Virus record (IMG/VR): IMGVR_UViG_3300009788_000017
Coordinates: 1-56,988 of that record
Length of the DNA stretch: 56,988 bases
Source of the DNA: a virus
Lineage: Duplodnaviria; Caudoviricetes
Direction: 5' to 3' (one strand)
Positions 11,630 through 51,993 of this stretch are shown here, piece by piece (position 1 is the stretch's first letter; every line of letters begins with the position of its first letter). Both the position numbers and the translations under genes were made by a program. The notes beneath the pieces are model-generated. The model saw nothing but the letters and a program-made list of their open reading frames with translations. It searched no databases and had not been told where the DNA came from.

Positions 11630-13686
11630 TGGCTAGGCAGACCCAGCCACAGCGAAAGCAGTATGTGATCTTCGGCGGTGGCCTGGACCTAGTCACACCG
11701 CCACTACAGGTAGATCCAGGACGTGTGATCAACGCCAAGAACTTCGAGGCTGACGTCAGCGGTGGATATCGCATGATGCGCGGGTTCGAGAGAGCTGATG
11801 GTCGAGAGTCCCCAACTCGGAGCTCTTGGCACGTGATTACCGTCGTCGACGGATCTACGTTCGTCATCGGAGAGCTAGTACTTGGTGAAGAGTCCGGCGC
11901 CTGCGGCATATTGATCGCGTCCACGACGAACGCACTTTATATGGTCTCTGTCATCGGAGACTTCGTCGCAGGTGAGTCGCTGAAGGCCACGAGCGCAGAG
12001 ACTACATCGACGTCCACAGCGTTCCAGAATGCCACAGTCGACGACGCTGTAACGAGCGCAGCTGTTCGGTTTGCTAAAGAAGAGTACTTCAAGGCATTTA
12101 TCGAGGCCGTACCTGGCACAGGCCCGGTACGTGGGGTGCATCGCCACTTTGACAAGCTCTACGCCATGCGCGATATCGACGGGACCGAGTGCGGCGTCTA
12201 TGAGGCTACAGCAGCCGGCTGGGTCCGTGTGCCGTTCGGAGACATCATGTTCTTCGACACCGGACTCGCAGCGATTACTGCTAATGATACACCTGGCACT
12301 GTGATCAACGATGGGGCCGCCAACACAGCCACTATTGAAGCGGTGGTATATGAGACGATCGCGTCCACAACAGGGTACATAGTCGTATCAGGTTACACGG
12401 CCGGCTTCTCAGCCACTGATCCAATCTTGCAGGGAGCGACACCGCTCGCCACTGTGAGCGAGTCAGCCATACCGTTTGTTCAGAAGCCTGCAGGTCGGTA
12501 CGAGTCGTTCTCGCATAACTTCTTCAGCAGTGCAGCTACATCGCAAGTCCACTCTGTGGACGGAGTGAATCCAGCATTTATAATTGACCCTGATCGGAGC
12601 CACGCCCACCCGGTTTACACAGATCAGACGAATCGATCCACAGATACACCCACGTTCTCAGCACCTTACAAGAGCCACTGGTTCGTCGGGTACGCTCGAG
12701 GCCTGCTCCGAAACAGTGAGCCGAACAACCCAGAGTTGTGGGATGCCGCAAGCGGTTCACTGGAGATCGCAGTAGGCGCGGCTGTGACAGGGTTCGACAC
12801 AACCCCTAGCTCTCTTACAGTCGCCACACGTCGGATAACGTACGTCCTGACCGGCACCACGATCGACGACTTTCTATTCGATGTCTCTAGCGCCAAGACC
12901 GGGGGAGCGCCGTACACGCTGCAGCACATCGGAACTACATACATGCTCGACGATCGAGGCGTGATCGAATTGAGTCGTGTACTGGCGTTCGGTAACTTCG
13001 AGAACGCCACAGTATCTCGCAAGATCACACCACTGCTGAATCGGCTGCGATCATCAATCGTAGCGTCGACAGTGTCCAGGGCGAACAATGTCTACCGTCT
13101 AATCACCAGCGACGGACGTGGGCTATCGATGACCCTCCAAGAGGAGGGCATCATTGGGTTCACTGAGTTCGACGTTCAGCGCGGAGTTAGCTGTGCATCG
13201 AACCAAGAGGATGAGGCAGGTGAAGAGCGGAGTTACTTCGGAAGTACAGACGGATTCGTCTATGAGTGGGACCTTGGCCAGTCGTATGATGGCGATGCTA
13301 TCGAGCGGTGGCTCCAGCCTGTAAACCACTTCCTTGAATCTCCAACCACCCTCAAAAGGTTCTACCGTGCATTCATTGACACAGTGCTGGATGGACGAGC
13401 AACAATTCAGATCTACGCCGAGCTGGCCTCAGGCGCGGCCTCAAAACAGCCGATCCTGACCCAGACCAAATCACTCGCAGGGTTGGAGTCAGGGTGGGAC
13501 GTAGGGCTGTGGGATGAGGCTATATTCGACGCCAACATCACCACTGGTGCAGAGATCGACCTGACCGGCAGTGGTGACTCGATAAGCCTGATCTTCTACA
13601 ATACCTCAGCGACCGACGATCCTGTAACCTTAAAGGACGTAGTCTACCACTACAAGCCACGACGGATGATCAGGGGATCACGATGA
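11629..13686 (+). CDS. Tail nozzle / DNA stabilisation protein (tail tubular B-like)
   Basis: N-terminal FGGGL, beta-rich 685 aa, WDVGLWD near the C-terminus; follows adaptor. Confidence 0.7.
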   Translation: MARQTQPQRKQYVIFGGGLDLVTPPLQVDPGRVINAKNFEADVSGGYRMMRGFERADGRESPTRSSWHVITVVDGSTFVIGELVLGEESGACGILIASTTNALYMVSVIGDFVAGESLKATSAETTSTSTAFQNATVDDAVTSAAVRFAKEEYFKAFIEAVPGTGPVRGVHRHFDKLYAMRDIDGTECGVYEATAAGWVRVPFGDIMFFDTGLAAITANDTPGTVINDGAANTATIEAVVYETIASTTGYIVVSGYTAGFSATDPILQGATPLATVSESAIPFVQKPAGRYESFSHNFFSSAATSQVHSVDGVNPAFIIDPDRSHAHPVYTDQTNRSTDTPTFSAPYKSHWFVGYARGLLRNSEPNNPELWDAASGSLEIAVGAAVTGFDTTPSSLTVATRRITYVLTGTTIDDFLFDVSSAKTGGAPYTLQHIGTTYMLDDRGVIELSRVLAFGNFENATVSRKITPLLNRLRSSIVASTVSRANNVYRLITSDGRGLSMTLQEEGIIGFTEFDVQRGVSCASNQEDEAGEERSYFGSTDGFVYEWDLGQSYDGDAIERWLQPVNHFLESPTTLKRFYRAFIDTVLDGRATIQIYAELASGAASKQPILTQTKSLAGLESGWDVGLWDEAIFDANITTGAEIDLTGSGDSISLIFYNTSATDDPVTLKDVVYHYKPRRMIRGSR

Positions 13687-15881
13687 GTAATGATTTTTAC
13701 AGCAAGCCTGCATCACCTGCACTGCCTCTGGCCACGGTTCGATCCGCGCAGTTCAACACTAATAACGAGGCCGTGGAGGCAGGGTTCGACAAGCTGCCGA
13801 CAGAAGATGACGTAAAGCGAATTCAATACGGCACAGATGGAAGCGCGACAGCGGCACTTTATGAAGTGACAGTCCCGTACCTAGTAGGTGGTACATACCG
13901 AGAAGGCCTGGAGGTGACATTCAAGGCCATCTTCGAGAATACAGGCCCAGCTAACATCTCAGTCAACGGCGGTACAAACGAGCCGATCATCGATGGCACT
14001 GGAGCAGCGCTCGTTGCAGGAAGTATTAAAGCAGGTCAGACGATCTCGCTGATCCGAGAGCCAGGAGCGGCAGGCACAGGGTTTCAACTATTATCGACAG
14101 TACTGCTGCAATCGGATGTCGCGGCAGCTGTTGCGGCGGCGGCAGCGTCAGAAGCATCCGCGACTGACTCCGCTAATTCAGCGACTGACTCCGCTAATTC
14201 CGCAGCCAGCATTAGCGATCCTCGGTTCGATAACAGGTACTCCCCTAAATTCGCCACAGTAGCAGCAATGGTATCAGCAACTCCTGTTGCACTTGATGGG
14301 GTTTCTGTCACTCCAGTTGTCGGCATGGTCGTCGCTATTGACGACTACGCCACAGGCAATAGATCGGGATTAATGTTTGGTCGAATAGTAGCGGCTGCGA
14401 CAGGAACAGTTGACGGCGGTTCATACATTGATTTGGCTAGTGGGCTGCAGTTTGAGCAGAACTTCCCTCGTCTGATAACTGCTAAGTTATTTGGTGCAAC
14501 AGGACTAGGTGTGGCTGATGAGACTACTAAGCTTCAAGCGTTTTCTGACTTCTTTTTAGACATATCAGGCAGAGATGTTAGATATCGCGCCTTGATCGAT
14601 CCCGGTACATACAAATTTACAAGCTTGACTATCGACGATGCAGGTACAGAGACCGGAGGTACAAACGGCAGGTCTGTTATCTCTGGGGCTGGCAGGATCA
14701 ATACTCAACTGGTATGCACTTCAGCTACAGCGGACGCTATTACGTTGACTGCGGGAAGAATCGATCTATCTGAGTTCACTTTAACATCTGACGGAGTTAA
14801 CCGGGCCAAGGCTATTGGTGCAGGTAACGGGCTTGTTATCGATAAGAATGCTGGCGCTCCAGATACTGTAACTATTGCCAAGTTCTCACTTACAAACATT
14901 CAGATTCTGGAGCAGCCTGGCCATGGTTTCCAAGGCATTAATCCAGAGCTTATGCACCTCAAAGGTGTAACTTCTGAAAGTAACGGCGGCGATGGGTTCT
15001 TCCTTGACGGTGCCAATGGAGGTTCGCCGTTAGGTATCGGCAATCTATTGGAGAATACACGCGCCAGGTTAAATACTGGGCGAGGGTATACTATTGATGG
15101 TGTCGATTACACAACCCTAATAAATCCTCAAGCCTTAAACAATGATGCCTCTTCAGAGATCTGGAGTAGTGGCAAAGGCACAATCATTATCAACCCCGAT
15201 GTGGAGTCTGATACTGCAGCGTCACATGCCGTTGGTATCACACTAAGTGGGCTTAGGAGCAAGGTCCTCGGCGGTCTAGTGTTTGGCACCACGATTGGTA
15301 TAGACCTGAATGGTGACGGGGAATCGGTAGACGGAACACACTTCACTAACTTTAGCCTCGCCTACGATATGACTCAGGCGGTTGATACAACTGGTGCGAC
15401 GAACTATAACGTTGACATAGCAGACGCTGACGCTGCGCTCAAAGTATTGAAAGGTGTACAGCCACTATCTCCACATGATGGCGGTGTCCAGATCATAGGG
15501 CCATACCATGAAACCGCAACCAGCGTTGGCCAGGTCAAAGAGTTCACAGTAACTTCAGACGCAGCTTTTCCACTGGGAGACGACGGAGAAGCAGGTGGGG
15601 GTCTTGTAAAGGTTTCTGCGTACTATATAACCCTCACGTCAGGGGCGACTATTCAGCCGCCACTGATCACTAGGGAAGGCCAGGAGTTTGATATTATCTT
15701 CAAACAGGATGCCACAGGAGGCCGGGCTGTATCCTTTTCAGGAGCTAATTGGAGAAGTAGTTTCTCGAATACCGGCAACACAGCTAATACTACGTCAACC
15801 GTTAGATTCCGTCGTCACTTTGACAGCTCAGATTCTTCAACCAGGTACATCCAAATTGGTGCACAAATGCCCTGGGTGTGA
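13683..15881 (+). CDS. Tail fibre/tailspike with pectate-lyase-like beta-helix
   Basis: N-terminal anchor, Ala/Ser linker, FGATGLGVADETTKLQA helix-cap motif, Gly/Asn-rich beta-helix repeats, C-terminal IIFKQDATGGRAV domain. Confidence 0.8.
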   Translation: MSNDFYSKPASPALPLATVRSAQFNTNNEAVEAGFDKLPTEDDVKRIQYGTDGSATAALYEVTVPYLVGGTYREGLEVTFKAIFENTGPANISVNGGTNEPIIDGTGAALVAGSIKAGQTISLIREPGAAGTGFQLLSTVLLQSDVAAAVAAAAASEASATDSANSATDSANSAASISDPRFDNRYSPKFATVAAMVSATPVALDGVSVTPVVGMVVAIDDYATGNRSGLMFGRIVAAATGTVDGGSYIDLASGLQFEQNFPRLITAKLFGATGLGVADETTKLQAFSDFFLDISGRDVRYRALIDPGTYKFTSLTIDDAGTETGGTNGRSVISGAGRINTQLVCTSATADAITLTAGRIDLSEFTLTSDGVNRAKAIGAGNGLVIDKNAGAPDTVTIAKFSLTNIQILEQPGHGFQGINPELMHLKGVTSESNGGDGFFLDGANGGSPLGIGNLLENTRARLNTGRGYTIDGVDYTTLINPQALNNDASSEIWSSGKGTIIINPDVESDTAASHAVGITLSGLRSKVLGGLVFGTTIGIDLNGDGESVDGTHFTNFSLAYDMTQAVDTTGATNYNVDIADADAALKVLKGVQPLSPHDGGVQIIGPYHETATSVGQVKEFTVTSDAAFPLGDDGEAGGGLVKVSAYYITLTSGATIQPPLITREGQEFDIIFKQDATGGRAVSFSGANWRSSFSNTGNTANTTSTVRFRRHFDSSDSSTRYIQIGAQMPWV

Positions 15882-15896
15882 CAATAGGTGATAGCT

Positions 15897-16079
15897 ATGA
15901 GTAAAGAAACAGCAGAAGCAACAGCAGAAGCAACAGCAGAAGCAACAGCAGAAGCAACAGCAGAAGCAACAGCAGAAGCAACAGCAGAAGCAACAGCAGA
16001 AGGTAACGTAAAATACTCTGACGCTACCCTTGAAGCACTAGAGCGATTGGGTCACCCTCACCCTGACTACCAAGGATAG
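15897..16079 (+). CDS. Small protein with (TAEA)n repeat
   Basis: AGGTG RBS upstream; lies between tailspike and lysis genes. Confidence 0.45.
   Translation: MSKETAEATAEATAEATAEATAEATAEATAEATAEGNVKYSDATLEALERLGHPHPDYQG
15909..16002. repeat. Perfect 12-bp tandem repeat (acagcagaagca) x ~7.8
   Basis: Read directly. Confidence 0.95.
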
Positions 16080-16088
16080 TGTGAAGTA

Positions 16089-16550
16089 ATGATTATCACA
16101 GTCAGACGGATGCTGTCGACCGCCGACGCAACGCTATCAGAAGTACTGGTCGACGGTGTGCGCCAATGCTTCGGACTCGAGGATGAGTACCGCGATCAGA
16201 AGATCGCCGGCGAAACTCGCATCCCTGCAGGGGCTTACAAAATCGGCATCAGAGCTGAGGGCGGCTTCCACAACCGCTACTGTGAGAGGTTCGCAGGCTT
16301 CCACCAAGGCATGCTGCAAGTACTAGATGTGCCGGGGTTCGAGTTCATCCTGATCCACGTAGGCAACACTGACGAGGACACTGCTGGGTGCCTGCTGGTA
16401 GGGCAGAGCTGCACTGCGGCCAATGGCACGGCCATAGTCGGGTCATCGGCGGCTGCGTACCGAGAGCTGTACCAGAAGGTCATAGCTGCTGCGATCGCAG
16501 AAGACCTGGTGATCCACTACATAGACGGAGACCGACATGCCGACGATTAA
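16089..16550 (+). CDS. DUF5675-family protein, putative endolysin (YkuD/L,D-peptidase-like)
   Basis: TRIPAGAY, ILIHVGNTDEDTAGCLLVG; next to holin-like genes. Confidence 0.75.
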   Translation: MIITVRRMLSTADATLSEVLVDGVRQCFGLEDEYRDQKIAGETRIPAGAYKIGIRAEGGFHNRYCERFAGFHQGMLQVLDVPGFEFILIHVGNTDEDTAGCLLVGQSCTAANGTAIVGSSAAAYRELYQKVIAAAIAEDLVIHYIDGDRHADD

Positions 16551-16826
16551 GTGGCTCCGAGACAACTGGTTCTTGCTGGCGTTCGTGTTCGCTTCTGGCA
16601 GCGCCTACGCCTGGCAAGAAGTACAGCGCCAAGAGTTGTCCAAGGTGGTCGTAGAGCAGCATCAGATACTTAAGGACCAACGCCGCGTCGGTGAAGCCGT
16701 GATCAGGCTACAGGCGCAGCAGGGCGCTATGGCAGTCACTCAGGGCGACATCAAAAAGAAGTTGGATCTGCTAATCGAGCTGCAGTTAAAGAGGACTAGG
16801 TGATCCACTACGTAGACGGAGACCGA
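16508..16826. repeat. 28-bp direct repeat pair (16508-16535, 16799-16826) flanking one gene
   Basis: ggtgatccactacRtagacggagaccga, one mismatch. Confidence 0.85.
16537..16803 (+). CDS. Membrane-anchored coiled-coil protein (lysis region)
   Basis: N-terminal hydrophobic helix plus heptad region. Confidence 0.6.
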   Translation: MPTIKWLRDNWFLLAFVFASGSAYAWQEVQRQELSKVVVEQHQILKDQRRVGEAVIRLQAQQGAMAVTQGDIKKKLDLLIELQLKRTR

Positions 16827-27563: not shown

Positions 27564-28493
27564 TTACGACCCCTTATTCCAAGACTTGATGATGTCGGCC
27601 AGCTCAGCGTCACCCTCTACAACTGCACCGTCCGTGGCTGCTTCGGTCGGAGCCGCCGGTGCGCCAAGAGGCGGCGCAGTAGGAGCAGCAATAGCGGCGT
27701 CCACTGCGGCACTTAAAGCACTCGGAGCAGGGGCAGTCGGTGCAGTTGGAGCTACGGGAGCTACCTTCGCACCGCCACGGCGCTTCTTGAACACGCCTTT
27801 GCCGGTCACCGGAGGCACGTCAGAGGATGCCGACTTGGCGTGCTTGTCCTCGCTCCAGACTTCACCGGCAGAGTCGACCCAATCACCCTCATGTTGCCGT
27901 GGCCACTCAGTTGCAGCCGGTGCTGCAGGGGTCGATGGGACTTCAGGAGTAGCTGGCGCGGCCTTGGCCGGCATCTCCATGTAGCCATGCTCGACAAGCT
28001 GATCGTCGGTCCAGCCAGTATCCAAGAACTGCTGCCGTGTAGCCCCGGCGGCCTTGGCAGTCATGACAGGCTCGGGCTCTGCTACAGCTTCAGGAGTGGC
28101 CGGCGCCACAGGTGTTACCGGCGCCACAGGTGCCACAGGAGCGGCCGGTGCTTCAGGCTCAGGAGTGGGCGCAACGACAACCGGTTCGACCAGCTTGGCG
28201 TGGCCCTCGCTAACCATCTGATCGTGGCTCCAGCCTGCGTCCAGAAGCTGCTGGATGGTATAGCTGCCAGTGGCCTCGTACTCAGGCTCAGACGCTACGA
28301 CCGGCGCCGCGGTAACTACTTCAGCTTCAGCCATCTCGGCAGCGGTAACCGCACCGCCGAAGAACGCCTGCTCAGAATCCACGAACAAATCGATGGATGG
28401 CTCAGGGCCGTCGACTGCGACGACGAACATGTCGATCGCGACCTCACGGATCAGGTCTTGGGTCTTTGAATTTTTCACGTTGATTTTAATCAT
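27564..28493 (-). CDS. Pro/Ala-rich protein with two GW modules and a DSAG.VW...H...KKRRG domain
   Basis: GGAG RBS; shares repeats with the upstream SSB-like gene. Confidence 0.7.
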   Translation of the reverse strand: MIKINVKNSKTQDLIREVAIDMFVVAVDGPEPSIDLFVDSEQAFFGGAVTAAEMAEAEVVTAAPVVASEPEYEATGSYTIQQLLDAGWSHDQMVSEGHAKLVEPVVVAPTPEPEAPAAPVAPVAPVTPVAPATPEAVAEPEPVMTAKAAGATRQQFLDTGWTDDQLVEHGYMEMPAKAAPATPEVPSTPAAPAATEWPRQHEGDWVDSAGEVWSEDKHAKSASSDVPPVTGKGVFKKRRGGAKVAPVAPTAPTAPAPSALSAAVDAAIAAPTAPPLGAPAAPTEAATDGAVVEGDAELADIIKSWNKGS

Positions 28494-28526: not shown

Positions 28527-28590
28527 TATGCGCTTACGCAATGTAGGTTATGCGCTTACGCAATGTAGGTTACGCGCTTACGCAATGTAG
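28527..28590. repeat. 22-bp tandem repeat x ~2.9 overlapping the SSB-like gene stop
   Basis: taYgcgcttacgcaatgtaggt at 28527, 28549, 28571. Confidence 0.9.
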
Positions 28591-29669
28591 CCATGGATCT
28601 TTAGGGTCTCGTCGGTCCAGCCCTGCGCGATGAACTCATCGTACGCCACACCGTTGGCCTTGGCAGTCATCAGCGGCTTGGTGGGCTCGGGCGACGGGGC
28701 AGGTGGAGTGAGTGCTGCTTCAGGAGTTGGAGGCGGCGCGACTGCTGCGGTCTTAGGTGCAGGCACGGCTGGAGTCGGCTCGACCAGCTTGGCGTGCCCA
28801 GCTTCAACCATCTGCTCATGGCTCCAGCCCGCGTCCAGAAGCTCCTGGACCGAGTGAGTGCCTGTCGCCTCATATTTCGCAGGGGCAGCCAGTGCAGGGG
28901 CGCCGCCAGCAGGGAGCGCAGGAGTGGCAGAGGGGTCCGCTGCAACGCCACGGTTATTAGACGGCTTCATGGAGTTCAGCTCGTCGGATTTGCCCCGAGC
29001 GATCATACGGGCGGCAGCTTCAGCTTCCAGCCAGGACTCACCGCGGAACGCCAGCTGCGGGTGCTCGTCGCTGGTGAAGGTCATCTCGGTAATCAGTGCC
29101 TGCATCGGAGCGCCGTGCTTGATTAACTCCTGGCCGTAGGCACTCAACGCCTTGAGGCTGGTGGCTGGGACGCGCAGTACTGCGACATCACCATCCAACT
29201 GGTCGAACGGCACGACGAACAGGTTCTTATGGTCGCCACACAGTTTGCCCTTAGTGGGCTGACCCGCTGCGTCCTTGCCGGACCCAAACACGTTGTGAGG
29301 GCATTCAGTGCAGGACCGTGATACCGGCGCCGAGACGAAGCCATCCGGTGTGAGGCCATCGGACGAGAAGCAGTCAGGGGCGTCGACCGAACCAGGTGTG
29401 TACGCACCGACGTAGAACGACTTGGCGCAGCCCTTGGGCGGATCCATGCCGAGGATCACAGCCTTGAACGGCTGACCGGCGGGGAACGGCGTCTCTTCGC
29501 CATCCTTCACAAACCGGAACTGCTTGCCCTTGATGGAGATGGAGGGCAGCGACAGGAAGCTGGTCACCAGGCCTGCGGCTTCAGCGGCATCGACAGCGTA
29601 CTGCTGAAGGTGAGCTGGCAGTCCGGTCGAGCCCTGGCCCAGTACTGACGGTACGTTTGGAGTAGTCAT
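28578..29669 (-). CDS. Putative ssDNA-binding/recombination protein with Cys cluster
   Basis: SISIKGKQF, PDCFSSDG, CTECPHNVFGS, KLC, LRVPATSLK; located in the replication module. Confidence 0.6.
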   Translation of the reverse strand: MTTPNVPSVLGQGSTGLPAHLQQYAVDAAEAAGLVTSFLSLPSISIKGKQFRFVKDGEETPFPAGQPFKAVILGMDPPKGCAKSFYVGAYTPGSVDAPDCFSSDGLTPDGFVSAPVSRSCTECPHNVFGSGKDAAGQPTKGKLCGDHKNLFVVPFDQLDGDVAVLRVPATSLKALSAYGQELIKHGAPMQALITEMTFTSDEHPQLAFRGESWLEAEAAARMIARGKSDELNSMKPSNNRGVAADPSATPALPAGGAPALAAPAKYEATGTHSVQELLDAGWSHEQMVEAGHAKLVEPTPAVPAPKTAAVAPPPTPEAALTPPAPSPEPTKPLMTAKANGVAYDEFIAQGWTDETLKIHGYIA

Positions 29670-33056: not shown

Positions 33057-34205
33057 TTAAACTAACGGCTGGCCGGTGTCGTCACATTGACGAGGCCCCA
33101 GCCCAATTGCGAACGATGGCAGCCCAGTGACGGTAAGCGACTGGTACTTCACCTTCCACCACTCGCCTACCAGCTGCGACTTCTGGAGTAGCATCGCCTT
33201 GCGCTCGTCATGGGATTTCTTCGGCGTGCAGTTGAACAGCTTCTTTTCAGGGCCGAACTCACATTGCAGCATGGCGTTGCCGTTCTTATCTGGCCAGACG
33301 TTCACCACCTTGCACTCGCAGTCGATGAATGGTTTGCACTTAAACAGACCACTGGACCGCTGCCCGACTGCGTACTCCGAGCCTATATGGCGGAGCATCA
33401 CGCCCTCTAGCCTGTGCTGCATGAATCTGTCCCGAAGCTTAAGCATGTCAGCCTCAGAGCTACATGGATGGCAGAGCACTAGCTTCAATAGGTTGCCGTA
33501 CTTCGGGGCGATCATCTCCATGGCTGCCGTCAGTACGCGGTGTCGCTCCTCGAACGGCATATCAGGTACGACGATGTCGAATAGGTAGAACTCCAGTTCC
33601 GCCGTATCGTCTTGAAGTCGCTCGGCCGCTGACAGTATATGAGAGCAGAGCCAGCCATGGCGGTAGACCTCACCATCTATAATCCGACATGGGTCAGGTC
33701 CTTCCAGGTCTGCTCCAAGTAACTCATTGACCTTCCACAGCAGGTCATCAGCAGCGTCGTCCAGGTGTGGGAGATCGTAAGCTAGGCCGGTGCGGCTGAG
33801 GAACTCCTGCTTGGATGAGGTAGCTCGGAGCCGCCCGTAGCCTAGCCGCAGACCGTCGAGCTTGGCCTGGGCCACCGTCCGAGTCCAGTCCACCTGGTGT
33901 GGCACCTTGAGGTAGTCCTGAGCCAGCATCGGCCGGAACTGGAGACCAGCCTGCTCAATGTCCTCGTGGTAGTCTTCACGCTCAATCTGGATGCGGTGCT
34001 TGGCCTCAGCCTCAAGGACTGCCTGCTGCCTGGCCGTGGTCTCATTGGCCTTGCCGACGTTCTTAGGGTGGGCCTCGGTGATCTGGCTGACCAGCTTCCC
34101 ATCCGTTAGGCCGAAGGTCACATGGACGTGGGATGCGACTGTCGTGACAGACCACTGCCGGGCCCGGCCTTTGCTATCGCGTTTGTAGAGAGTCGGGAGG
34201 CTCAT
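33057..34205 (-). CDS. ATP-dependent DNA ligase with N-terminal WGR-like extension
   Basis: PMLA, KLDGLR (motif I), DGEVY, FD, EGVMLR, K.K. Confidence 0.9.
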   Translation of the reverse strand: MSLPTLYKRDSKGRARQWSVTTVASHVHVTFGLTDGKLVSQITEAHPKNVGKANETTARQQAVLEAEAKHRIQIEREDYHEDIEQAGLQFRPMLAQDYLKVPHQVDWTRTVAQAKLDGLRLGYGRLRATSSKQEFLSRTGLAYDLPHLDDAADDLLWKVNELLGADLEGPDPCRIIDGEVYRHGWLCSHILSAAERLQDDTAELEFYLFDIVVPDMPFEERHRVLTAAMEMIAPKYGNLLKLVLCHPCSSEADMLKLRDRFMQHRLEGVMLRHIGSEYAVGQRSSGLFKCKPFIDCECKVVNVWPDKNGNAMLQCEFGPEKKLFNCTPKKSHDERKAMLLQKSQLVGEWWKVKYQSLTVTGLPSFAIGLGPRQCDDTGQPLV

Positions 34206-34303
34206 GAGTCAGACACCATTACTGTTAGCAGGACGAGTCCACCCATGGCCAGCCATACCGCAGCCGTCCACATCCAGTCGTGCTTGCCTTTGGTGTAGCT
34301 CAT
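34202..34303 (-). CDS. Small membrane peptide (33 aa)
   Basis: MSYTKGKHDWMWTAAVWLAMGGLVLLTVMVSDS; stop overlaps ligase start. Confidence 0.45.
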   Translation of the reverse strand: MSYTKGKHDWMWTAAVWLAMGGLVLLTVMVSDS

Positions 34304-34304
34304 A

Positions 34305-34835
34305 TCAATACCCCTGTTGCAGTTCTTTATGGAGGCACTTAGCTAGCTCGCCTGCGATCCGCTCAACGCCGCCATGCCAAAGGGCTTCACGCGACCCACG
34401 CCACGCAGCACACTGGTTCGCCACGCCACGGTGCTGCAGCTGCACTTCAAAGTGAACCGCGTCGCGGAACTCGTTACTGTCTCGAAGCTCCGCCTCCAGC
34501 TCGTATAGCGGGATGCGTGTGAAGTCGATGGCTTTGGGAGGCTCGTTTGGAGCTGACACATCCAGCATGATCAGAGGCTCCGTACGCTTTGCGATCCAAT
34601 GGTCTTCATGGATCACAGTGGCTGCACTCAGAGCGATCGAATCAGGGTTGATAGAGCGCACCACCTCCACGACCCGCTTCGCTGATGTGATCGACTGTGC
34701 GAAGTCCTGCTCAAGCTGGTCTGCTCGGGCAGCCTCTCGCGCCAGGCTGGCGTAGCAGTTCCAGTAGTTGGCCTTCACTGCTGCAAGTTCAGCCTGCATC
34801 GCCCGCTTCTGATTCCTTCCGAATCGTTTGCTCAT
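34305..34835 (-). CDS. Hypothetical protein
   Basis: MSKRFGRNQKR start overlapping the upstream stop. Confidence 0.6.
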   Translation of the reverse strand: MSKRFGRNQKRAMQAELAAVKANYWNCYASLAREAARADQLEQDFAQSITSAKRVVEVVRSINPDSIALSAATVIHEDHWIAKRTEPLIMLDVSAPNEPPKAIDFTRIPLYELEAELRDSNEFRDAVHFEVQLQHRGVANQCAAWRGSREALWHGGVERIAGELAKCLHKELQQGY

Positions 34836-35140
34836 TTCCCTTCTCCCCAGATCCATGAATAGATGACAAACCATGCTGGGCGGCGCGTCATCCTTAATTT
34901 ATTGAGCTCAAACCGCAGGCTGTGGAGCTCATCCTCCTTAGGTCCGATCACTATGACCGGAGTCTGATCCGCCTTGGCAGCCTCGAGCTCCTGCAGCAGC
35001 TTGGCGTAGTTGACCTTATGGGACTCTAGCGTAGCCTGCAACTTCGTCCCTGCGCGCCCACTTTGCAAGAGTCGCAGCTCAGCAGCTTGGTTCTTCGCAC
35101 GCTCCAGTAGCTGAGCGTATGTCAGTGATTCGAGCTGCAT
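34832..35140 (-). CDS. Hypothetical coiled-coil protein
   Basis: Operonic overlaps on both sides. Confidence 0.6.
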   Translation of the reverse strand: MQLESLTYAQLLERAKNQAAELRLLQSGRAGTKLQATLESHKVNYAKLLQELEAAKADQTPVIVIGPKEDELHSLRFELNKLRMTRRPAWFVIYSWIWGEGK

Positions 35141-35349
35141 CAGAAAGGCTCCTCTTCATCTAGCGGCTCTAGCCGGTCAGGGTCGTCAGGGTTTACGACC
35201 TCGGCAACCTCATCCAGGCTAAGGATGCCCTTGCTGTGGAGCAGTTCGGTAAGACGTCCGGTGACTTCTCCAGTGGCTCGCTTGCCGACGTACTCAGAGA
35301 GTGTCGTCTCCTCGACATCGCAGCGGCCAGTCCATGCTCGAATATCCAT
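35140..35349 (-). CDS. Hypothetical protein
   Basis: Start reassigned to ATG 35349, with a GAGG RBS inside the displaced exonuclease end. Confidence 0.55.
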   Translation of the reverse strand: MDIRAWTGRCDVEETTLSEYVGKRATGEVTGRLTELLHSKGILSLDEVAEVVNPDDPDRLEPLDEEEPF

Positions 35350-35350
35350 A

Positions 35351-35461
35351 TCATCCTCGCTTCGCTTCAAAGACCCGGCGCTTTTCTTTCAGCTCGGGCG
35401 TCATTTGTGAGCACTGCCCCACTTCAGCCGGACAGAACATGCACTTGTAGGTTGGCTTCAT
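35351..35461 (-). pseudogene. Displaced 3' end of the Cas4-like exonuclease gene (36-codon mini-ORF)
   Basis: MKPTYKCMFCPAEVGQCSQMTPELKEKRRVFEAKRG; 32/35 aa identical to the end of 35979-36695. Confidence 0.85.
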
Positions 35462-35976
35462 ATCACTCTCTTTCCGTGGTTAGGATGGAACTCTAGGTCT
35501 ACTTCTGCGGACTTCCTAGAGTTTGCGGCAGCTTCAAACTCGTCGAAGTACCCAAGAAATTTAACCTTGCCGTATGTCTTTATCTCGGCCTTCCACTTGC
35601 TTCGCGACTTCACCCAGTACACACCTACACACCCTGACGTATTGGCAGAAGTGAGCATGTAGTTGCGATGGTTCTGAGAGCAGCTGACATCACGTAAGTT
35701 AGCTATGTGATTATCGTCGCGATCTCCGTTGATGTGATCTATCTGTGCTGCAGGCTCAGCGCCTGTATGGTATATCCATATAAGTCGGTGCGCTTTATAC
35801 TGTCGCCTGCCAATACTTATATGCCGGTAGCCGTCCTGCAGTACACTACCAGCTTCACAGCCTCTTAGCTGTGGACGGCGAAGCGGCGGTGACTTCCAAA
35901 TCAACTTACCATCTACATACTCAAACAGCTCATGTAGGTCGTCTTTCGAAAGTGTAATGTGTCTCGACGCAACCAT
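35458..35976 (-). CDS. HNH homing endonuclease with AP2-like C-terminal domain
   Basis: AHRLIW, IDHINGDRDDNHIANLR, NTSGCVGVYW, KFLGYF. Confidence 0.9.
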   Translation of the reverse strand: MVASRHITLSKDDLHELFEYVDGKLIWKSPPLRRPQLRGCEAGSVLQDGYRHISIGRRQYKAHRLIWIYHTGAEPAAQIDHINGDRDDNHIANLRDVSCSQNHRNYMLTSANTSGCVGVYWVKSRSKWKAEIKTYGKVKFLGYFDEFEAAANSRKSAEVDLEFHPNHGKRVI

Positions 35977-35978
35977 TG

Positions 35979-36695
35979 CTAGCCCCTCTTGTTCTCGAAC
36001 TTACGCCGTTTCTCTTTAAGTTCAGGCGTCATTTGCGAGCACTGGCCAATCTCAGCCGGGCAGAACATACACTTATAGGTTGGCTTCTCAGGCCAGTTGC
36101 CAGACTCGTTGGCTAGCTGGATCAGCTCAGATCGGTCACCGAATTCCTGCCAGATAGCTTCCAGCTGATCCCGTGTGTACTCTACATATACCATCGGAGC
36201 TGTAGGATGGTCAACAAATACGTACGCGGTCGTTACTTTCTGAGCCTTGGGGTGCATGTCGAACACACCGGCCGTGAACATCCGCAGCTGGTCCGTGGAG
36301 TCCGTACGCACCTTGCCGGTCTTCCAGTCAATCATGACGATGTGCTCTTCACCACTGGCGCAGATCAAATCGAAGATCATCCGGCACCATGCCTGCTTGT
36401 CGAACCATGAGCACATCTTGCGCCGGGCGTTGAAGCAGACCTGGAGCTCGGCCTTGATCATGCTGCTGGCGCGGATCTTCTCGATCACCGGCGCGATCCA
36501 CTGGCGGCTGGGATGAAGAGGTGTGCCCTTGCCGATCGCATCCTCCAGCTCCTTGTGGACGTCCTTACCGCGCTGCAGGTGAGGCGAGTTGAAGTTCTCC
36601 TTCGGGAAGTCCTTCAGGATGTACTTGCCCTGGAACATCCGAGGGCACTGCTCAAAATCATTAAGTCGTGAGAACGACCAGGCTATGCGTGACAT
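35979..36695 (-). CDS. PD-(D/E)XK Cas4/RecB-like exonuclease with Fe-S cysteines
   Basis: WSFSRL...CP, HKELE, D...IDWKTG, QL, C-terminal CxxC-x6-C. Confidence 0.85.
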   Translation of the reverse strand: MSRIAWSFSRLNDFEQCPRMFQGKYILKDFPKENFNSPHLQRGKDVHKELEDAIGKGTPLHPSRQWIAPVIEKIRASSMIKAELQVCFNARRKMCSWFDKQAWCRMIFDLICASGEEHIVMIDWKTGKVRTDSTDQLRMFTAGVFDMHPKAQKVTTAYVFVDHPTAPMVYVEYTRDQLEAIWQEFGDRSELIQLANESGNWPEKPTYKCMFCPAEIGQCSQMTPELKEKRRKFENKRG

Positions 36696-36721
36696 TGTGT
36701 ATCGTCTTTGAACTTACTAAG

Positions 36722-36750
36722 ACTATAAAATTACTTTCTACGTTCGTCAA
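36722..36750 (-). promoter_or_regulatory. sigma70-like promoter TTGACG-N17-TATAGT
   Basis: In the AT-rich gap between polymerase and exonuclease. Confidence 0.7.
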
Positions 36751-36753
36751 GTA

Positions 36754-38652
36754 TTAAAGTTCTTTTAGTTGAGGCCAGTTAGCTCCGACCGATGCATCCC
36801 ACTTCAACGGCACCTCAAGATCCACACCCCATGCAGCCTTGTAGTCCATGGCGTTGAGCATGGCTCGAGCCTCCAAGATCTTCGACTCAGGGTAGTCCTC
36901 GGGTACGAGGTAGTGCAGGCCATCGTGGAGCGAGAACCAGAACAGCTGCTCCGGGAAGTGCTCACTCATCTGCTGGAGTCCAAGATCTGACATGTCAGCA
37001 CCGGACCCCTGGATCGGGAACATCAGCGCCGATGACTCGGACGACCATCGCATATCTGGGGACCAGTCATCGATAGCGAACCGGCGGCCGCCCAACGTCT
37101 CAGCGTACCCGACTGCTTTGGCAGTGGCGATGGCGTTGGACCAGTAGATCTTGATCCCGGGGAACATACGCTTGAATGTATCCTGCCAGTCTTTGGTCTT
37201 CAGGAAGTCCACGTTAAGTCCGTACTGCACGCGGGCTTGTATCCTCATTTTCCGTACGCCTACTCTGAAATTTTGGCTCAGGTTGATAAATTTCGCTGCA
37301 TACCTATAGCCATGTTCGCCGACGATGGCTATGTTGCCTGCCTCCTTGCCTTTCATAAATGCTTCGTAGCTCATGCCACTGATGGCGGCGCCGGTGAACG
37401 AGTGGAAGTCCATGTTCTTGGTGAATACGTTGCGCATCGCGATGTCACCTGACTTCTCCGCCATTAGCCGAGACTCCTGGCCGGCTGCGTCATACTCGAC
37501 GTGCTTATATCCGGCCGGCGGCTTGAGTAGCGCACGGAGCTGCTTGTTCCGAGGCCATTGGTGCAGCGCCACGCCGGTCTGGTATTTCTTTTTGGTCTTG
37601 GAGCTGTACGTTTTTCGACCAGTGTAGGTGCCGAACATCTTAGGCGATGGGTGCATGGTGTCACTGCCAAGATAGGTGCGTGCTTTCTTAGGGGCTTCAA
37701 TGTACTTCGACAGCTGAGTGTTGAGCTCGCGCCACCGTAGGATCTCCAACGCCCGGTCGTCATCGTCAGCCAGGTATGTCAGCGCAGCCTTGTCGGTGCT
37801 CGGCTCGCCGGTCTTGTCCGAGAAGTTCTTGGCGATCAGCTTCCACTTACCATAGAGCAGGGCGCCTAGTTGCTTTGGAGACCGGAGGATCTTACTGGGT
37901 GTCCAGAACGCGGTGTCCTCCATGACGCGTTTGGCTGCGGGCCCGGCATAGTTGCTGACGCCGAGCGAGAACTCGATATCGCGCATCTCAGTTACGATCG
38001 CAGGGCGGATGGAGTCAAGCAGCGAGAAGTCGATCGGCACGCCCATGAGCCAGCTCCGGGCCACCTCTGGGATCGACGAGCACTCGATCATGGCGGAGCT
38101 GATCTGCCGGTCTGTGAGTAGTGGGATGACCTGCTCTACGATCTTAGCGGTGATGATCGCATCCAGCTTGGCACGGGTCTCCCAGTACAACGCGCTACCA
38201 CCAGGCGTGTGCTCCTCCTTTTTCATCTGGAGGAACGCCTCAAGCCAAGGCTCGTCAGCGCAGAACTTCTTGGCGCCGTCAGCCAGTGACCACTTCGGGA
38301 TGCGCTCCTTGCGCTGGGAGTTGGCGTACCACTTCCAGAGCAGCATGGCGTCGACCCACTTGATGGCCTTAACTTCCTGCCAGTGTCCGGAGGCGATCAG
38401 CCAGGCCACGTCGAAGATGCCGTTCCAGGTGGTGACATACTCACCCTCGAGTCCTTGGAGCAGGCCACGCCAGTCTGACTGCTCCAGCAAGGAGCGGCCG
38501 TCAGCCTTGGCGATAGAGATGCAGTCGATCTGAGCCTTGCCCTCGGTGCCCCGCCACGGCTGCAGGGCGTACTCGCTGGGCTGATCGACCGCGGGCCCGG
38601 TCTCGATGTCGAGCGCGGTGGCGCCGAGGAGTTGGGTTCGTAGGTCAGTCAT
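36754..38652 (-). CDS. Family A DNA polymerase (3'-5' exo + pol), phiVC8-DpoZ-like signature
   Basis: LDIET (ExoI), WNGIFD (ExoII), TGR, motif A YDAAGQESR, motif B RYAAKFINLSQNF, PIQGSGAD, motif C LHDG. Confidence 0.9.
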   Translation of the reverse strand: MTDLRTQLLGATALDIETGPAVDQPSEYALQPWRGTEGKAQIDCISIAKADGRSLLEQSDWRGLLQGLEGEYVTTWNGIFDVAWLIASGHWQEVKAIKWVDAMLLWKWYANSQRKERIPKWSLADGAKKFCADEPWLEAFLQMKKEEHTPGGSALYWETRAKLDAIITAKIVEQVIPLLTDRQISSAMIECSSIPEVARSWLMGVPIDFSLLDSIRPAIVTEMRDIEFSLGVSNYAGPAAKRVMEDTAFWTPSKILRSPKQLGALLYGKWKLIAKNFSDKTGEPSTDKAALTYLADDDDRALEILRWRELNTQLSKYIEAPKKARTYLGSDTMHPSPKMFGTYTGRKTYSSKTKKKYQTGVALHQWPRNKQLRALLKPPAGYKHVEYDAAGQESRLMAEKSGDIAMRNVFTKNMDFHSFTGAAISGMSYEAFMKGKEAGNIAIVGEHGYRYAAKFINLSQNFRVGVRKMRIQARVQYGLNVDFLKTKDWQDTFKRMFPGIKIYWSNAIATAKAVGYAETLGGRRFAIDDWSPDMRWSSESSALMFPIQGSGADMSDLGLQQMSEHFPEQLFWFSLHDGLHYLVPEDYPESKILEARAMLNAMDYKAAWGVDLEVPLKWDASVGANWPQLKEL

Positions 38653-51058: not shown

Positions 51059-51409
51059 CTAGACCAGCAGGTCGCGTAGTGTGACGTTGAGGCTCTCACC
51101 TACTCGGGTCGCCACGGTCGCCCAGCCATCGGACTGCGCTGGTGGCTGCTCGTGCACGGCGTTGACGATCTGGGCGACCGTGGTATCCAAGCTGGTGACG
51201 CAGTAGCCGCCACTGGGGCCGCGCGTGCTGGTCACCAGGTTCTCTTTGCGGAGGTCTGCGAAGATCTGCTCCAGGTAGGAGACCGAGGCGTGCTGACGTG
51301 CTGAGAGCTCTGAAAGCGAGGTGGGGGTGGGGGTGCCGTGGATGGCACCGAGGTGCGCCAGGTTGATCATGGCGATCACTGCGTGCTTTGACTTGAGTCC
51401 TATTAACAT
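51059..51409 (-). CDS. Rrf2/IscR-like transcriptional regulator lacking the Fe-S cysteine segment
   Basis: SLSELSARQHASVSYLEQIFADLRKENLVTSTRGPSGGY closely follows the IscR wHTH; ends NVTLRDLL. Confidence 0.88.
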   Translation of the reverse strand: MLIGLKSKHAVIAMINLAHLGAIHGTPTPTSLSELSARQHASVSYLEQIFADLRKENLVTSTRGPSGGYCVTSLDTTVAQIVNAVHEQPPAQSDGWATVATRVGESLNVTLRDLLV

Positions 51410-51474: not shown

Positions 51475-51993
51475 TTAAAGTAATCGGTCAGATCCGTGAT
51501 TTACATGGTAGCCGTGTTTAATTTCAGCTTCCTTTCTTGCTGTGATGGCGTCGTCAATACTGACGAAATAGCCGATGTGCTTCAACTTTCCGTCAATGCA
51601 TATTCGCGCGACCCATTTCTTGGTGAGCTTATTCAAGTGGACTCCGCAAGTACCTGAGGTGTTATCTGAGTGGAGCCTTTGGTTCCTCATATTCTCCGAG
51701 GCTGTTGCAGTCCTGATGTTGCTGAGCCTGTTGTCGACCCCATCGCCATTGATGTGATCGGTTTGGTCCTCAGGGAATTGGCCATACGTGTAGAGCCAAG
51801 CGAGTCTATGAGCCATGTAATTCCTGCCGGCTATCATGATTCGTCGGTAGGATTTTCCGGTGCGAGTCGTGTGAGTGATGCCGGCATTGTCGCCCGCTTT
51901 AGCCCCTCCTCGGGCCACTAGCCACGTAAAGACGCCAGTATCTGGATCGTAATGGAGTAGTTCTTGGAGTCTTGCTTGGGAGAGTGTGTTCAT
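51475..51993 (-). CDS. HNH homing endonuclease with AP2-like domain
   Basis: YDPDTGVF, AHRLAW, DHINGDGVDNRLSN, NTSGTCGV, KHIGYF. Confidence 0.9.
   Translation of the reverse strand: MNTLSQARLQELLHYDPDTGVFTWLVARGGAKAGDNAGITHTTRTGKSYRRIMIAGRNYMAHRLAWLYTYGQFPEDQTDHINGDGVDNRLSNIRTATASENMRNQRLHSDNTSGTCGVHLNKLTKKWVARICIDGKLKHIGYFVSIDDAITARKEAEIKHGYHVNHGSDRLL

Follow-up and report, generated by a model that had tools for sequence, protein, structure and literature searches.

How does a putative homing endonuclease gene come to lie between two differing copies of the end of one phage gene, and how does that gene keep its own end? The locus that raises this question belongs to the virus record IMGVR_UViG_3300009788_000017 (Duplodnaviria; Caudoviricetes), and the stretch of DNA analyzed here (the window) is the whole of that record, a complete phage genome (56,988 bp) that ends in direct terminal repeats of 123 nt. 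On its minus strand, the gene for a Cas4-like exonuclease is followed by a free-standing gene for an HNH endonuclease, and the end of the exonuclease gene is found on both sides of the latter. We consider it probable that the locus is an end-replacing homing cassette, which would supply its target gene with a foreign 3′ end while displacing the native one. The core of this reading, a splice-free cassette with a replacement tail and a native downstream copy, was proposed in an initial annotation made from the sequence and is supported by the evidence assembled below. The features at the center of the argument are:

35979-36695, minus strand: gene for a Cas4-like PD-(D/E)XK exonuclease (238 aa), apparently now a hybrid of its body and the upstream tail.
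35979-36086, minus strand: upstream tail copy (K204-G238 and TAG), in frame with the exonuclease body.
35458-35976, minus strand: free-standing gene for an HNH_3 + AP2-type endonuclease (172 aa).
35351-35461, minus strand: 36-aa open reading frame (ORF) formed by the downstream tail copy with an ATG in front, also predicted by gene callers (P0162).

The last 35 codons of the exonuclease, along with the stop codon, are present twice (36086-35979 and 35458-35351, minus strand, 108 nt each), and the copies share 80 of 108 nt (74%) and 32 of 35 residues. Among the 36 codons, 15 are identical, 18 differ synonymously (17 sense codons and the TAG/TGA stop) and three are non-synonymous (I/V, K/V and N/A); the longest identical run, read from the alignment, is 12 nt. 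The repeat extends exactly from K204 to the stop, with the 60 nt before and after the copies matching at only 17/60 and 14/60 positions, and a tblastx comparison of the two flanks of the HNH gene recovers it with E = 1.5e-21. The duplication is thus confirmed with the counts first given for it (32 shared residues and 17 synonymous sense codons). The duplicated segment starts exactly at the HNH stop, where the TGA is overlapped by the ATG of the 36-aa ORF (an ATGA arrangement), just as the initial annotation had described for this mini-ORF. Each copy also houses a ribosome-binding site: the downstream one, as previously noted, that of the next gene (GAGGA, 4 nt before the ATG at 35349; anti-Shine-Dalgarno pairing of -7.9 kcal/mol) and the upstream one the Shine-Dalgarno (SD) sequence of the HNH gene (-7.4 kcal/mol before its ATG). 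By comparison, the SD of the 36-aa ORF is weak (-4.4 kcal/mol vs. -7 to -8 kcal/mol for its neighbors). The window has a second HNH_3/AP2-type gene (51475-51993, minus strand; 172 aa, 41% identical to the first), which lies upstream of an Rrf2-family regulator gene (51059-51409); its flanks gave a best tblastx match to each other of E = 0.028 in non-matching frames, i.e., no flank duplication.

A genome assembled from a metagenome invites the explanation that two strain variants were joined during assembly, and only one sequencing run, its probable source, contains the sequence, with no RNA run listed. Copies that are only 74% identical speak against such a joint, as does a Logan contig (14,377 nt), which represents the same sequencing data through a different assembler and covers 34300-37300 at an even depth of 15 with the same arrangement and no alternative joint. 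No HNH-less joint came to light among the contigs of that run. We therefore regard an artifact as extremely unlikely.

The HNH gene is an intact ORF in its own right: the exonuclease frame, unbroken by the insertion, closes with TAG before it, and it is furnished with its own SD and ATG. Rfam returned no family at the gathering threshold for the whole window and, under permissive settings (E up to 1) on 35000-36800, a single chance match to a long non-coding RNA. A group I or group II intron or an intein was rejected on these grounds, and the splicing-free nature of the insertion is accordingly borne out. The presence of the gene is sporadic, since it is missing from the same locus in L084 and L085, two relatives for which DNA is available.

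The protein product contains an HNH_3 domain (PF13392, E = 1.2e-14), matches phrog_99 (E = 1.3e-61) and displays 18 of the 18 residues that are invariant in a 20-sequence family alignment. Its match to AP2 (PF00847) is marginal (E = 0.0071, 17.1 bits vs. the Pfam cut-off of 33.3), and the region aligns with homologues carrying PF00847. Cleavage activity, a target site and self-immunity are predicted for this enzyme.

The protein whose end is duplicated matches PF12705 (E = 1.2e-14) and phrog_69 (“exonuclease”). Its AlphaFold2 model, built on 37 homologues, has a mean predicted local distance difference test (pLDDT) score of 94, and Foldseek aligns it with RecE, the Cas4-family ACE1, MGME1, the nuclease domains of AdnAB and the SSO0001 Cas4 (E = 1e-8 to 1e-5), which together with the PF12705 match places it in the PD-(D/E)XK fold; a profile search of Protein Data Bank (PDB) sequences gave no hit. 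Across the 37 homologues, C17 is conserved in at least 90%, and no sequence lacks C209, C212 or C219. The last 35 codons encode all of these three invariant cysteines, in agreement with the earlier claim that this segment bears three of the four predicted Fe-S cysteines. The same four-cysteine pattern holds the cluster in Cas4 and AddB, and we infer that the four conserved cysteines hold an Fe-S cluster in the phage exonuclease as well.

Relatives of the locus are few at the DNA level. A megablast of 34800-36800 against 50,697 phage records found no match, tblastn found relatives at no more than 33% identity, and single-protein scans of viral contigs gave a best relative of 29% for the exonuclease and relatives of 40% for the HNH protein. 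In L084 and L085, whose exonucleases are 71-72% identical in amino acids to that of the window, the exonuclease gene has one tail and no HNH gene and is directly followed by the ligase gene. HNH-free relatives with both tails, which the initial annotation held to be incompatible with its reading, were looked for, and these two carry a single one. In a scan of 83 exonuclease loci for a second copy of their own tail, a same-strand copy was found in the window only (0/82 others), with weak opposite-strand matches (~1e-4) about 2.7 kb away in L041 and L058. A degenerate DNA pattern for the CMFCPA..GQC tail hit no viral contigs; a single genome contig (L088) matched inside an unrelated 860-aa ORF, which we read as chance. 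A search for shorter proteins bearing the tail found none, short forms probably being hidden inside clusters of long ones.

Which of the two tails is the native one is best seen from protein relatives. In P0163, the closest (88% identical overall, 86% over residues 21-203), ...NWPE is joined directly to a tail with 34/35 matches to the downstream copy and 31/35 to the upstream copy. The P0161 tail gives the same figures (34/35 vs. 31/35), and those of P0164, P0160 and P0007 match the downstream copy at 33/35. The empty allele foreseen in the initial annotation, with ...WPE leading into a downstream-type tail, thus exists at the protein level in P0163 and P0161. At the three positions that distinguish the copies, P0163 has the downstream state at 3/3 and P0164 at 2/3, and for five out of five nearest relatives the downstream copy is the nearer one in protein sequence. 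The P0163 tail (34/35 vs. 31/35) makes the downstream copy the likely native one and points to import of the upstream copy. In two respects the locus then resembles an end-replacing element: the nuclease ORF stands between a whole target gene and a displaced piece of that gene's end, and, at the protein level, the displaced end is nearer to close relatives than the end in use.

The opposite polarity would make the upstream tail native and the cassette a unit of HNH gene and downstream tail, acquired from a donor with an HNH-split exonuclease. It is favored by the similar composition of the two tails (given below) and by the K-R-G codons that end both of them and form an SD, on account of which the SD argument cannot fix the polarity. 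Against it, the bodies of the nearest relatives join the downstream-type tail directly, the upstream tail has an N32 that is unique and a K29 otherwise found only in more distant relatives, and a split-gene donor is an extra assumption; we judge this polarity decidedly improbable.

With the upstream tail taken as the import, the histories of body and tail among the exonucleases are also of interest. P0163 and P0160 are 66% identical in the body and share 34/35 tail residues, while P0163 and P0003 are 72% identical in the body and share 22/35; relatives with the most distant bodies (57-70% identical) have tails with 33-34/35 residues in common with the lineage of the window. This discordance suggests repeated transfer of the tail from one lineage to another. 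Gene content beyond the exonuclease varies among relatives too (L084 and L085).

The initial annotation went further and saw in the silent differences an adaptive recoding that renders the cassette immune to its own enzyme. A special process of this kind need not be assumed. Same-residue degenerate codons differ between the copies at 17 of 30 positions against 14.5 expected for independent draws from the codon usage of this phage (p = 0.23), i.e., ordinary saturation between distant homologues. For comparison, the silent-codon difference over the whole exonuclease between the window and L084/L085 is 0.43-0.51; the proportion of synonymous differences (pS) between copies by the NG86 method, 0.91, is inflated by two-fold codons and was left unused. 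The silent differences are therefore at saturation, as for a tail from a distant relative, and the tail protein is more conserved than the body; with two tails as different as silent sites allow and a conserved tail protein, no special recoding is needed. The difference in spelling nevertheless spans the inferred cut region, and its consequence may equal that of recoding. We also expect deletion of the nuclease gene by recombination between the repeats to be rare, given 74% identity and a longest run of 12 nt.

To see whether the layout recurs, we scanned viral contigs three times with HNH-AP2 alignments, retaining each time the best 80 relatives (out of 572, 573 and 428), and added two loci from another HNH scan and the two genes of the window, which amount to 195 distinct nuclease places, 190 of them usable. 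The 700 nt before each HNH gene were compared with the 700 nt after it, retaining same-strand matches with E < 1e-3 and calling those within 120 nt of the nuclease ORF abutting. Nine of the 190 showed a same-strand match, and in six both copies abut the nuclease ORF. In a mismatched control, pairing each upstream flank with the downstream flank of the next locus, 3/190 matched and one abutted, an HNH-to-HNH artifact. A diverged duplication of a gene end abutting the nuclease is thus present in 5 of the 188 other HNH-AP2 loci (~3% of the sample), three at 3′ ends and two at 5′ ends; L096, L128 and L306 have flank similarity away from the nuclease and were left out of the count. The five are:

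L206, 235-339 and 954-1058: the final 33 codons of a probable terminase gene are doubled; 70/102 nt agree, and the codons divide into 12 identical, 17 synonymous and 5 non-synonymous ones.
L157, 1933-2004 and 2473-2544: last 23 codons of a terminase large subunit gene; 49/72 nt identical.
L289, 1906-1998 and 2474-2566: end of a phrog_2378 gene, with a frame-shifted displaced copy that is in part read as the C-terminus of the HNH protein.
L132, 1938-2003 and 2431-2505: mirror layout, in which the first ~20 codons of a downstream DUF3310 gene are doubled, with the upstream remnant continuing in frame into the start of the HNH ORF.
L268, 1941-1997 and 2450-2506: mirror layout as in L132, with the upstream remnant fused to the HNH start; the family of the downstream gene is unknown.

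The layout in the window is part of a recurring and apparently undescribed phage pattern.

These loci bear on a further explanation, an in-situ duplication in this lineage with both copies under selection and the 36-aa CxxC-x6-C peptide translated and useful. The intact 36-aa ORF with its ATG over the HNH stop, its prediction by gene callers, the few non-synonymous changes between the copies and a glutamine at tail position 18 that both share and relatives lack would all fit. Yet the ORF has a weak SD, and the pattern of many silent and few replacement changes recurs in L206, whose leftover lacks a start at its head and extends over the start of the following gene, and in L289, whose leftover is frame-shifted, so that this signature needs no selection on the leftover. 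Moreover, relatives resemble the downstream copy more closely than the one in use, which import explains better than divergence in situ. We hold an in-situ origin to be quite unlikely. Because the SD is weak and the leftovers of L206 and L289 lack a head start or the frame, translation of the 36-aa ORF is doubtful; the displaced end in the 3′-end cases need not be translatable, which makes retention of the ORF for its peptide less credible, and it is unlikely that translation of the leftover matters.

Base composition gives a less tidy picture. The G+C content at third codon positions (GC3) of the exonuclease is 125/150 (0.83) for codons 1-150 and 29/53 for codons 151-203 (Fisher p = 6.6e-5), and that of the HNH gene is 0.51. 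A change-point search places the start of the low-GC3 segment at 36245 (codon ~151), with a score reached in 0/100 permutations:

36087-36245, minus strand: exonuclease codons 151-203, the low-GC3 stretch that begins at the change point.

This point may be the left crossover, with codons 151-203 a co-converted part of the import.

Several observations count against the end-replacing cassette. The low-GC3 tract runs past the HNH gene into the next genes, to ~35083, and the two tails are alike in GC3 (0.67 vs. 0.64), for which reasons composition does not delimit the import. The assignment of the native copy turns on three informative residues, and the close relatives P0163, P0164, P0160 and P0007 are known as proteins only. 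The glutamine at tail position 18 is encoded by CAA in both window copies at a site where relatives carry E, N or K, which may reflect a short patch of gene conversion or a closer kinship of the two copies. A donor cannot be named, as the HNH homologues are too distant (the nearest, among 5.8 billion proteins searched, is 49% identical), and nuclease activity, a target site and immunity are predicted properties. Lastly, a 48-nt gene-end duplication in the same genome (16488-16535 and 16779-16826, plus strand; 81% identical), free of any nuclease, shows that such duplications are possible with no homing enzyme.

The last point, together with the reach of the low-GC3 tract beyond the HNH gene and the differing gene content downstream of the exonuclease among relatives, favors a model in which the HNH gene is a passenger: the region would be a mosaic of two distant relatives, formed by an illegitimate crossover at the exonuclease tail with no involvement of HNH activity. 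Indeed, the 48-nt direct repeat surrounds an 88-aa ORF (16537-16803) with no nuclease nearby. What speaks against the passenger model is the geometry: in the 5/188 other loci both junctions lie within 120 nt of the nuclease ORF ends, and in the window the repeat sets in exactly at the stop codon of the HNH gene, as would be predicted for a break linked to the nuclease gene. We consider it unlikely on balance. As to the 48-nt repeat itself, it consists of the last 16 codons and the GGAG ribosome site of a DUF5675 gene (16089-16550), the copies being 291 nt apart; the second copy has an in-frame TAG and forms the SD region for the next gene (16831).

The surroundings of the locus are those of a replication module on the minus strand, in the order polymerase, exonuclease, HNH, 36-aa ORF, three small ORFs and ligase:

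36754-38652, minus strand: family A DNA polymerase gene, first in the order of the module.
35140-35349, minus strand: the gene next to the 36-aa ORF (69 aa; called gene P0169).
33057-34205, minus strand: ATP-dependent ligase gene.

The 69-aa product has no Pfam or PHROG match, and the three small ORFs between the 36-aa ORF and the ligase are of unknown family. At 90% identity, the protein clusters of the polymerase, ligase, HNH and small ORFs contain this phage alone. Between the polymerase and exonuclease genes there is a sigma-70-like site (36750-36722, minus strand; TTGACG, 17 nt, TATAGT; 10/12 matches), and the exonuclease start is nearly devoid of an SD (-0.9 kcal/mol). Elsewhere in the genome, a 132-nt repeat (28149-28280 and 28743-28874, 73% identical) within the minus-strand genes 27564-28493 and 28578-29669 codes for a segment (…QQLLDAGWSH…) common to two adjoining proline/alanine-rich proteins without a Pfam match, and a 63-aa ORF (15888-16079) that closely follows a 732-aa ORF (13683-15881) contains an (AEAT)n run, encoded by about nine tandem 12-nt units (15880-16023).

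For the end-replacing cassette, we propose the following course of events. A co-infecting donor phage would have supplied an HNH enzyme that cut the sensitive exonuclease allele near codon 203/204. The left end of the break would then be repaired through homology in the exonuclease body, copying the donor tail and the HNH gene. The right join could have formed by an illegitimate one-sided event at the break, comparable to the one-sided illegitimate break repair reported for the homing of T4 introns when exon homology is limited (Parker et al. 1999, as summarized in PMC2988022), or else the recipient tail paired with a displaced tail that the donor already carried, a route put forward for the WHO elements of yeasts. 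The upstream tail would represent the resistant allele, silent-site saturated relative to the native one, and would keep the exonuclease gene whole by restoring three of its four conserved cysteines. The native last 35 codons would have been moved downstream; the next gene still has its ribosome-binding site within them. This displaced tail would be a leftover that doubles as a portable right-hand homology arm, and such an arm would be useful here, given that relatives differ in the genes that come after the exonuclease.

Parallels are known from outside phages. In the available accounts, fungal mitochondrial genomes have “gene hybrids” created by mobile ORFs (mORFs) in Allomyces macrogynus atp6 and in atp6, atp9, cox2 and nad3 of Glomus sp. 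(Beaudet et al. 2013, PMC3630166), and Endoconidiophora has partial C-terminal duplications of atp6 and cob beside homing endonuclease genes (HEGs) (PMC6279837). The layout is the same as in the window, namely a gene body, a foreign in-frame C-terminus, an endonuclease ORF and a displaced native C-terminus, with no splicing. The analogy drawn in the initial annotation with these elements is accurate when set beside that description (PMC3630166). The inserted and the native C-terminus of Glomus atp6 share 63.5% of their nucleotides and 91% of their amino acids, with the native one nearer to a sister species (PMC3630166); here too, the ends differ strongly in DNA and little in protein (74% and 91% identity), and the native end is the nearer one to a relative. 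As described there, the mORFs reside in organelle genomes, encode LAGLIDADG or GIY-YIG enzymes and are in some cases fused in frame to the host gene, whereas the window is a double-stranded DNA phage with an HNH_3/AP2 gene that has its own start and a Cas4-like exonuclease as its target.

In Torulaspora and Lachancea yeasts, every homing of a WHO element gives FBA1 a new 3′ end (Coughlan et al. 2020, PMC7282813). By this account, the old 3′ end is pushed downstream as a fragment, as in the window, and serves as a recombination arm, and the 5′ and 3′ parts of FBA1 in WHO-bearing yeasts have discordant histories (PMC7282813), similar to the body/tail discordance of the exonucleases. WHO elements differ in being nuclear and meiotic, with intein-related nucleases whose cleavage and allele specificity are described there as experimentally established, while both are predicted for the phage element. 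The enzyme of the window is an HNH_3 protein, of a family other than LAGLIDADG, GIY-YIG or the intein-like WHO/HO nucleases, and its likeness to mORFs and WHO elements is therefore one of mechanism and not of descent. Unlike WHO loci, the window has no cluster of successive fragments.

Free-standing nucleases of phages are found between genes, splitting a gene into working pieces (nrdA of Aeh1) or in the mobA/gene 60 bypass cassette. Such “intronless homing” in T4-like phages includes the mobA/gene 60 cassette and the mobE insertion that splits nrdA in Aeh1 (PMC2988022; 10.1101/2022.08.31.505936). The window resembles these systems in having a nuclease gene beside or inside a conserved gene, and the cassette would share their spread by break repair with co-conversion of the flanks. 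In those cases, however, the target is untouched, split into two working pieces or bridged by translational bypass, and a duplicated replacement end was not found in these accounts. A non-exhaustive search of the literature likewise found no phage description of replacement gene ends or such duplications. Judged from its organization, the locus would be a clean phage example of an end-replacing homing element.

HEGs are thought to survive in essential genes only by means of self-splicing introns or inteins, or else between genes. The locus in the window, together with the five further phage loci, points to a third route, a spare and differently spelled gene end. More tentatively, and as a possibility that we hold to be on the doubtful side of even, the combination of a resistant replacement end, an HNH gene and a sensitive-type displaced end acting as a portable arm could constitute an autonomous homing unit general in phages. 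If so, the displaced end would not be junk, and the nuclease could home into any target-bearing phage, whatever lies downstream. The arrangement offers a natural design for measuring the homology that a phage homing event needs on each side, and it would account for some of the short orphan ORFs and “partial gene duplications” in phage annotations. Repeated rounds of such homing would generate chimeric ends in essential phage genes, such as those for the exonuclease and terminase, and explain the discordance between body and tail. For phage marker genes, among them terminase, this is a warning that the 3′ or the 5′ end can differ in history from the rest of the gene.

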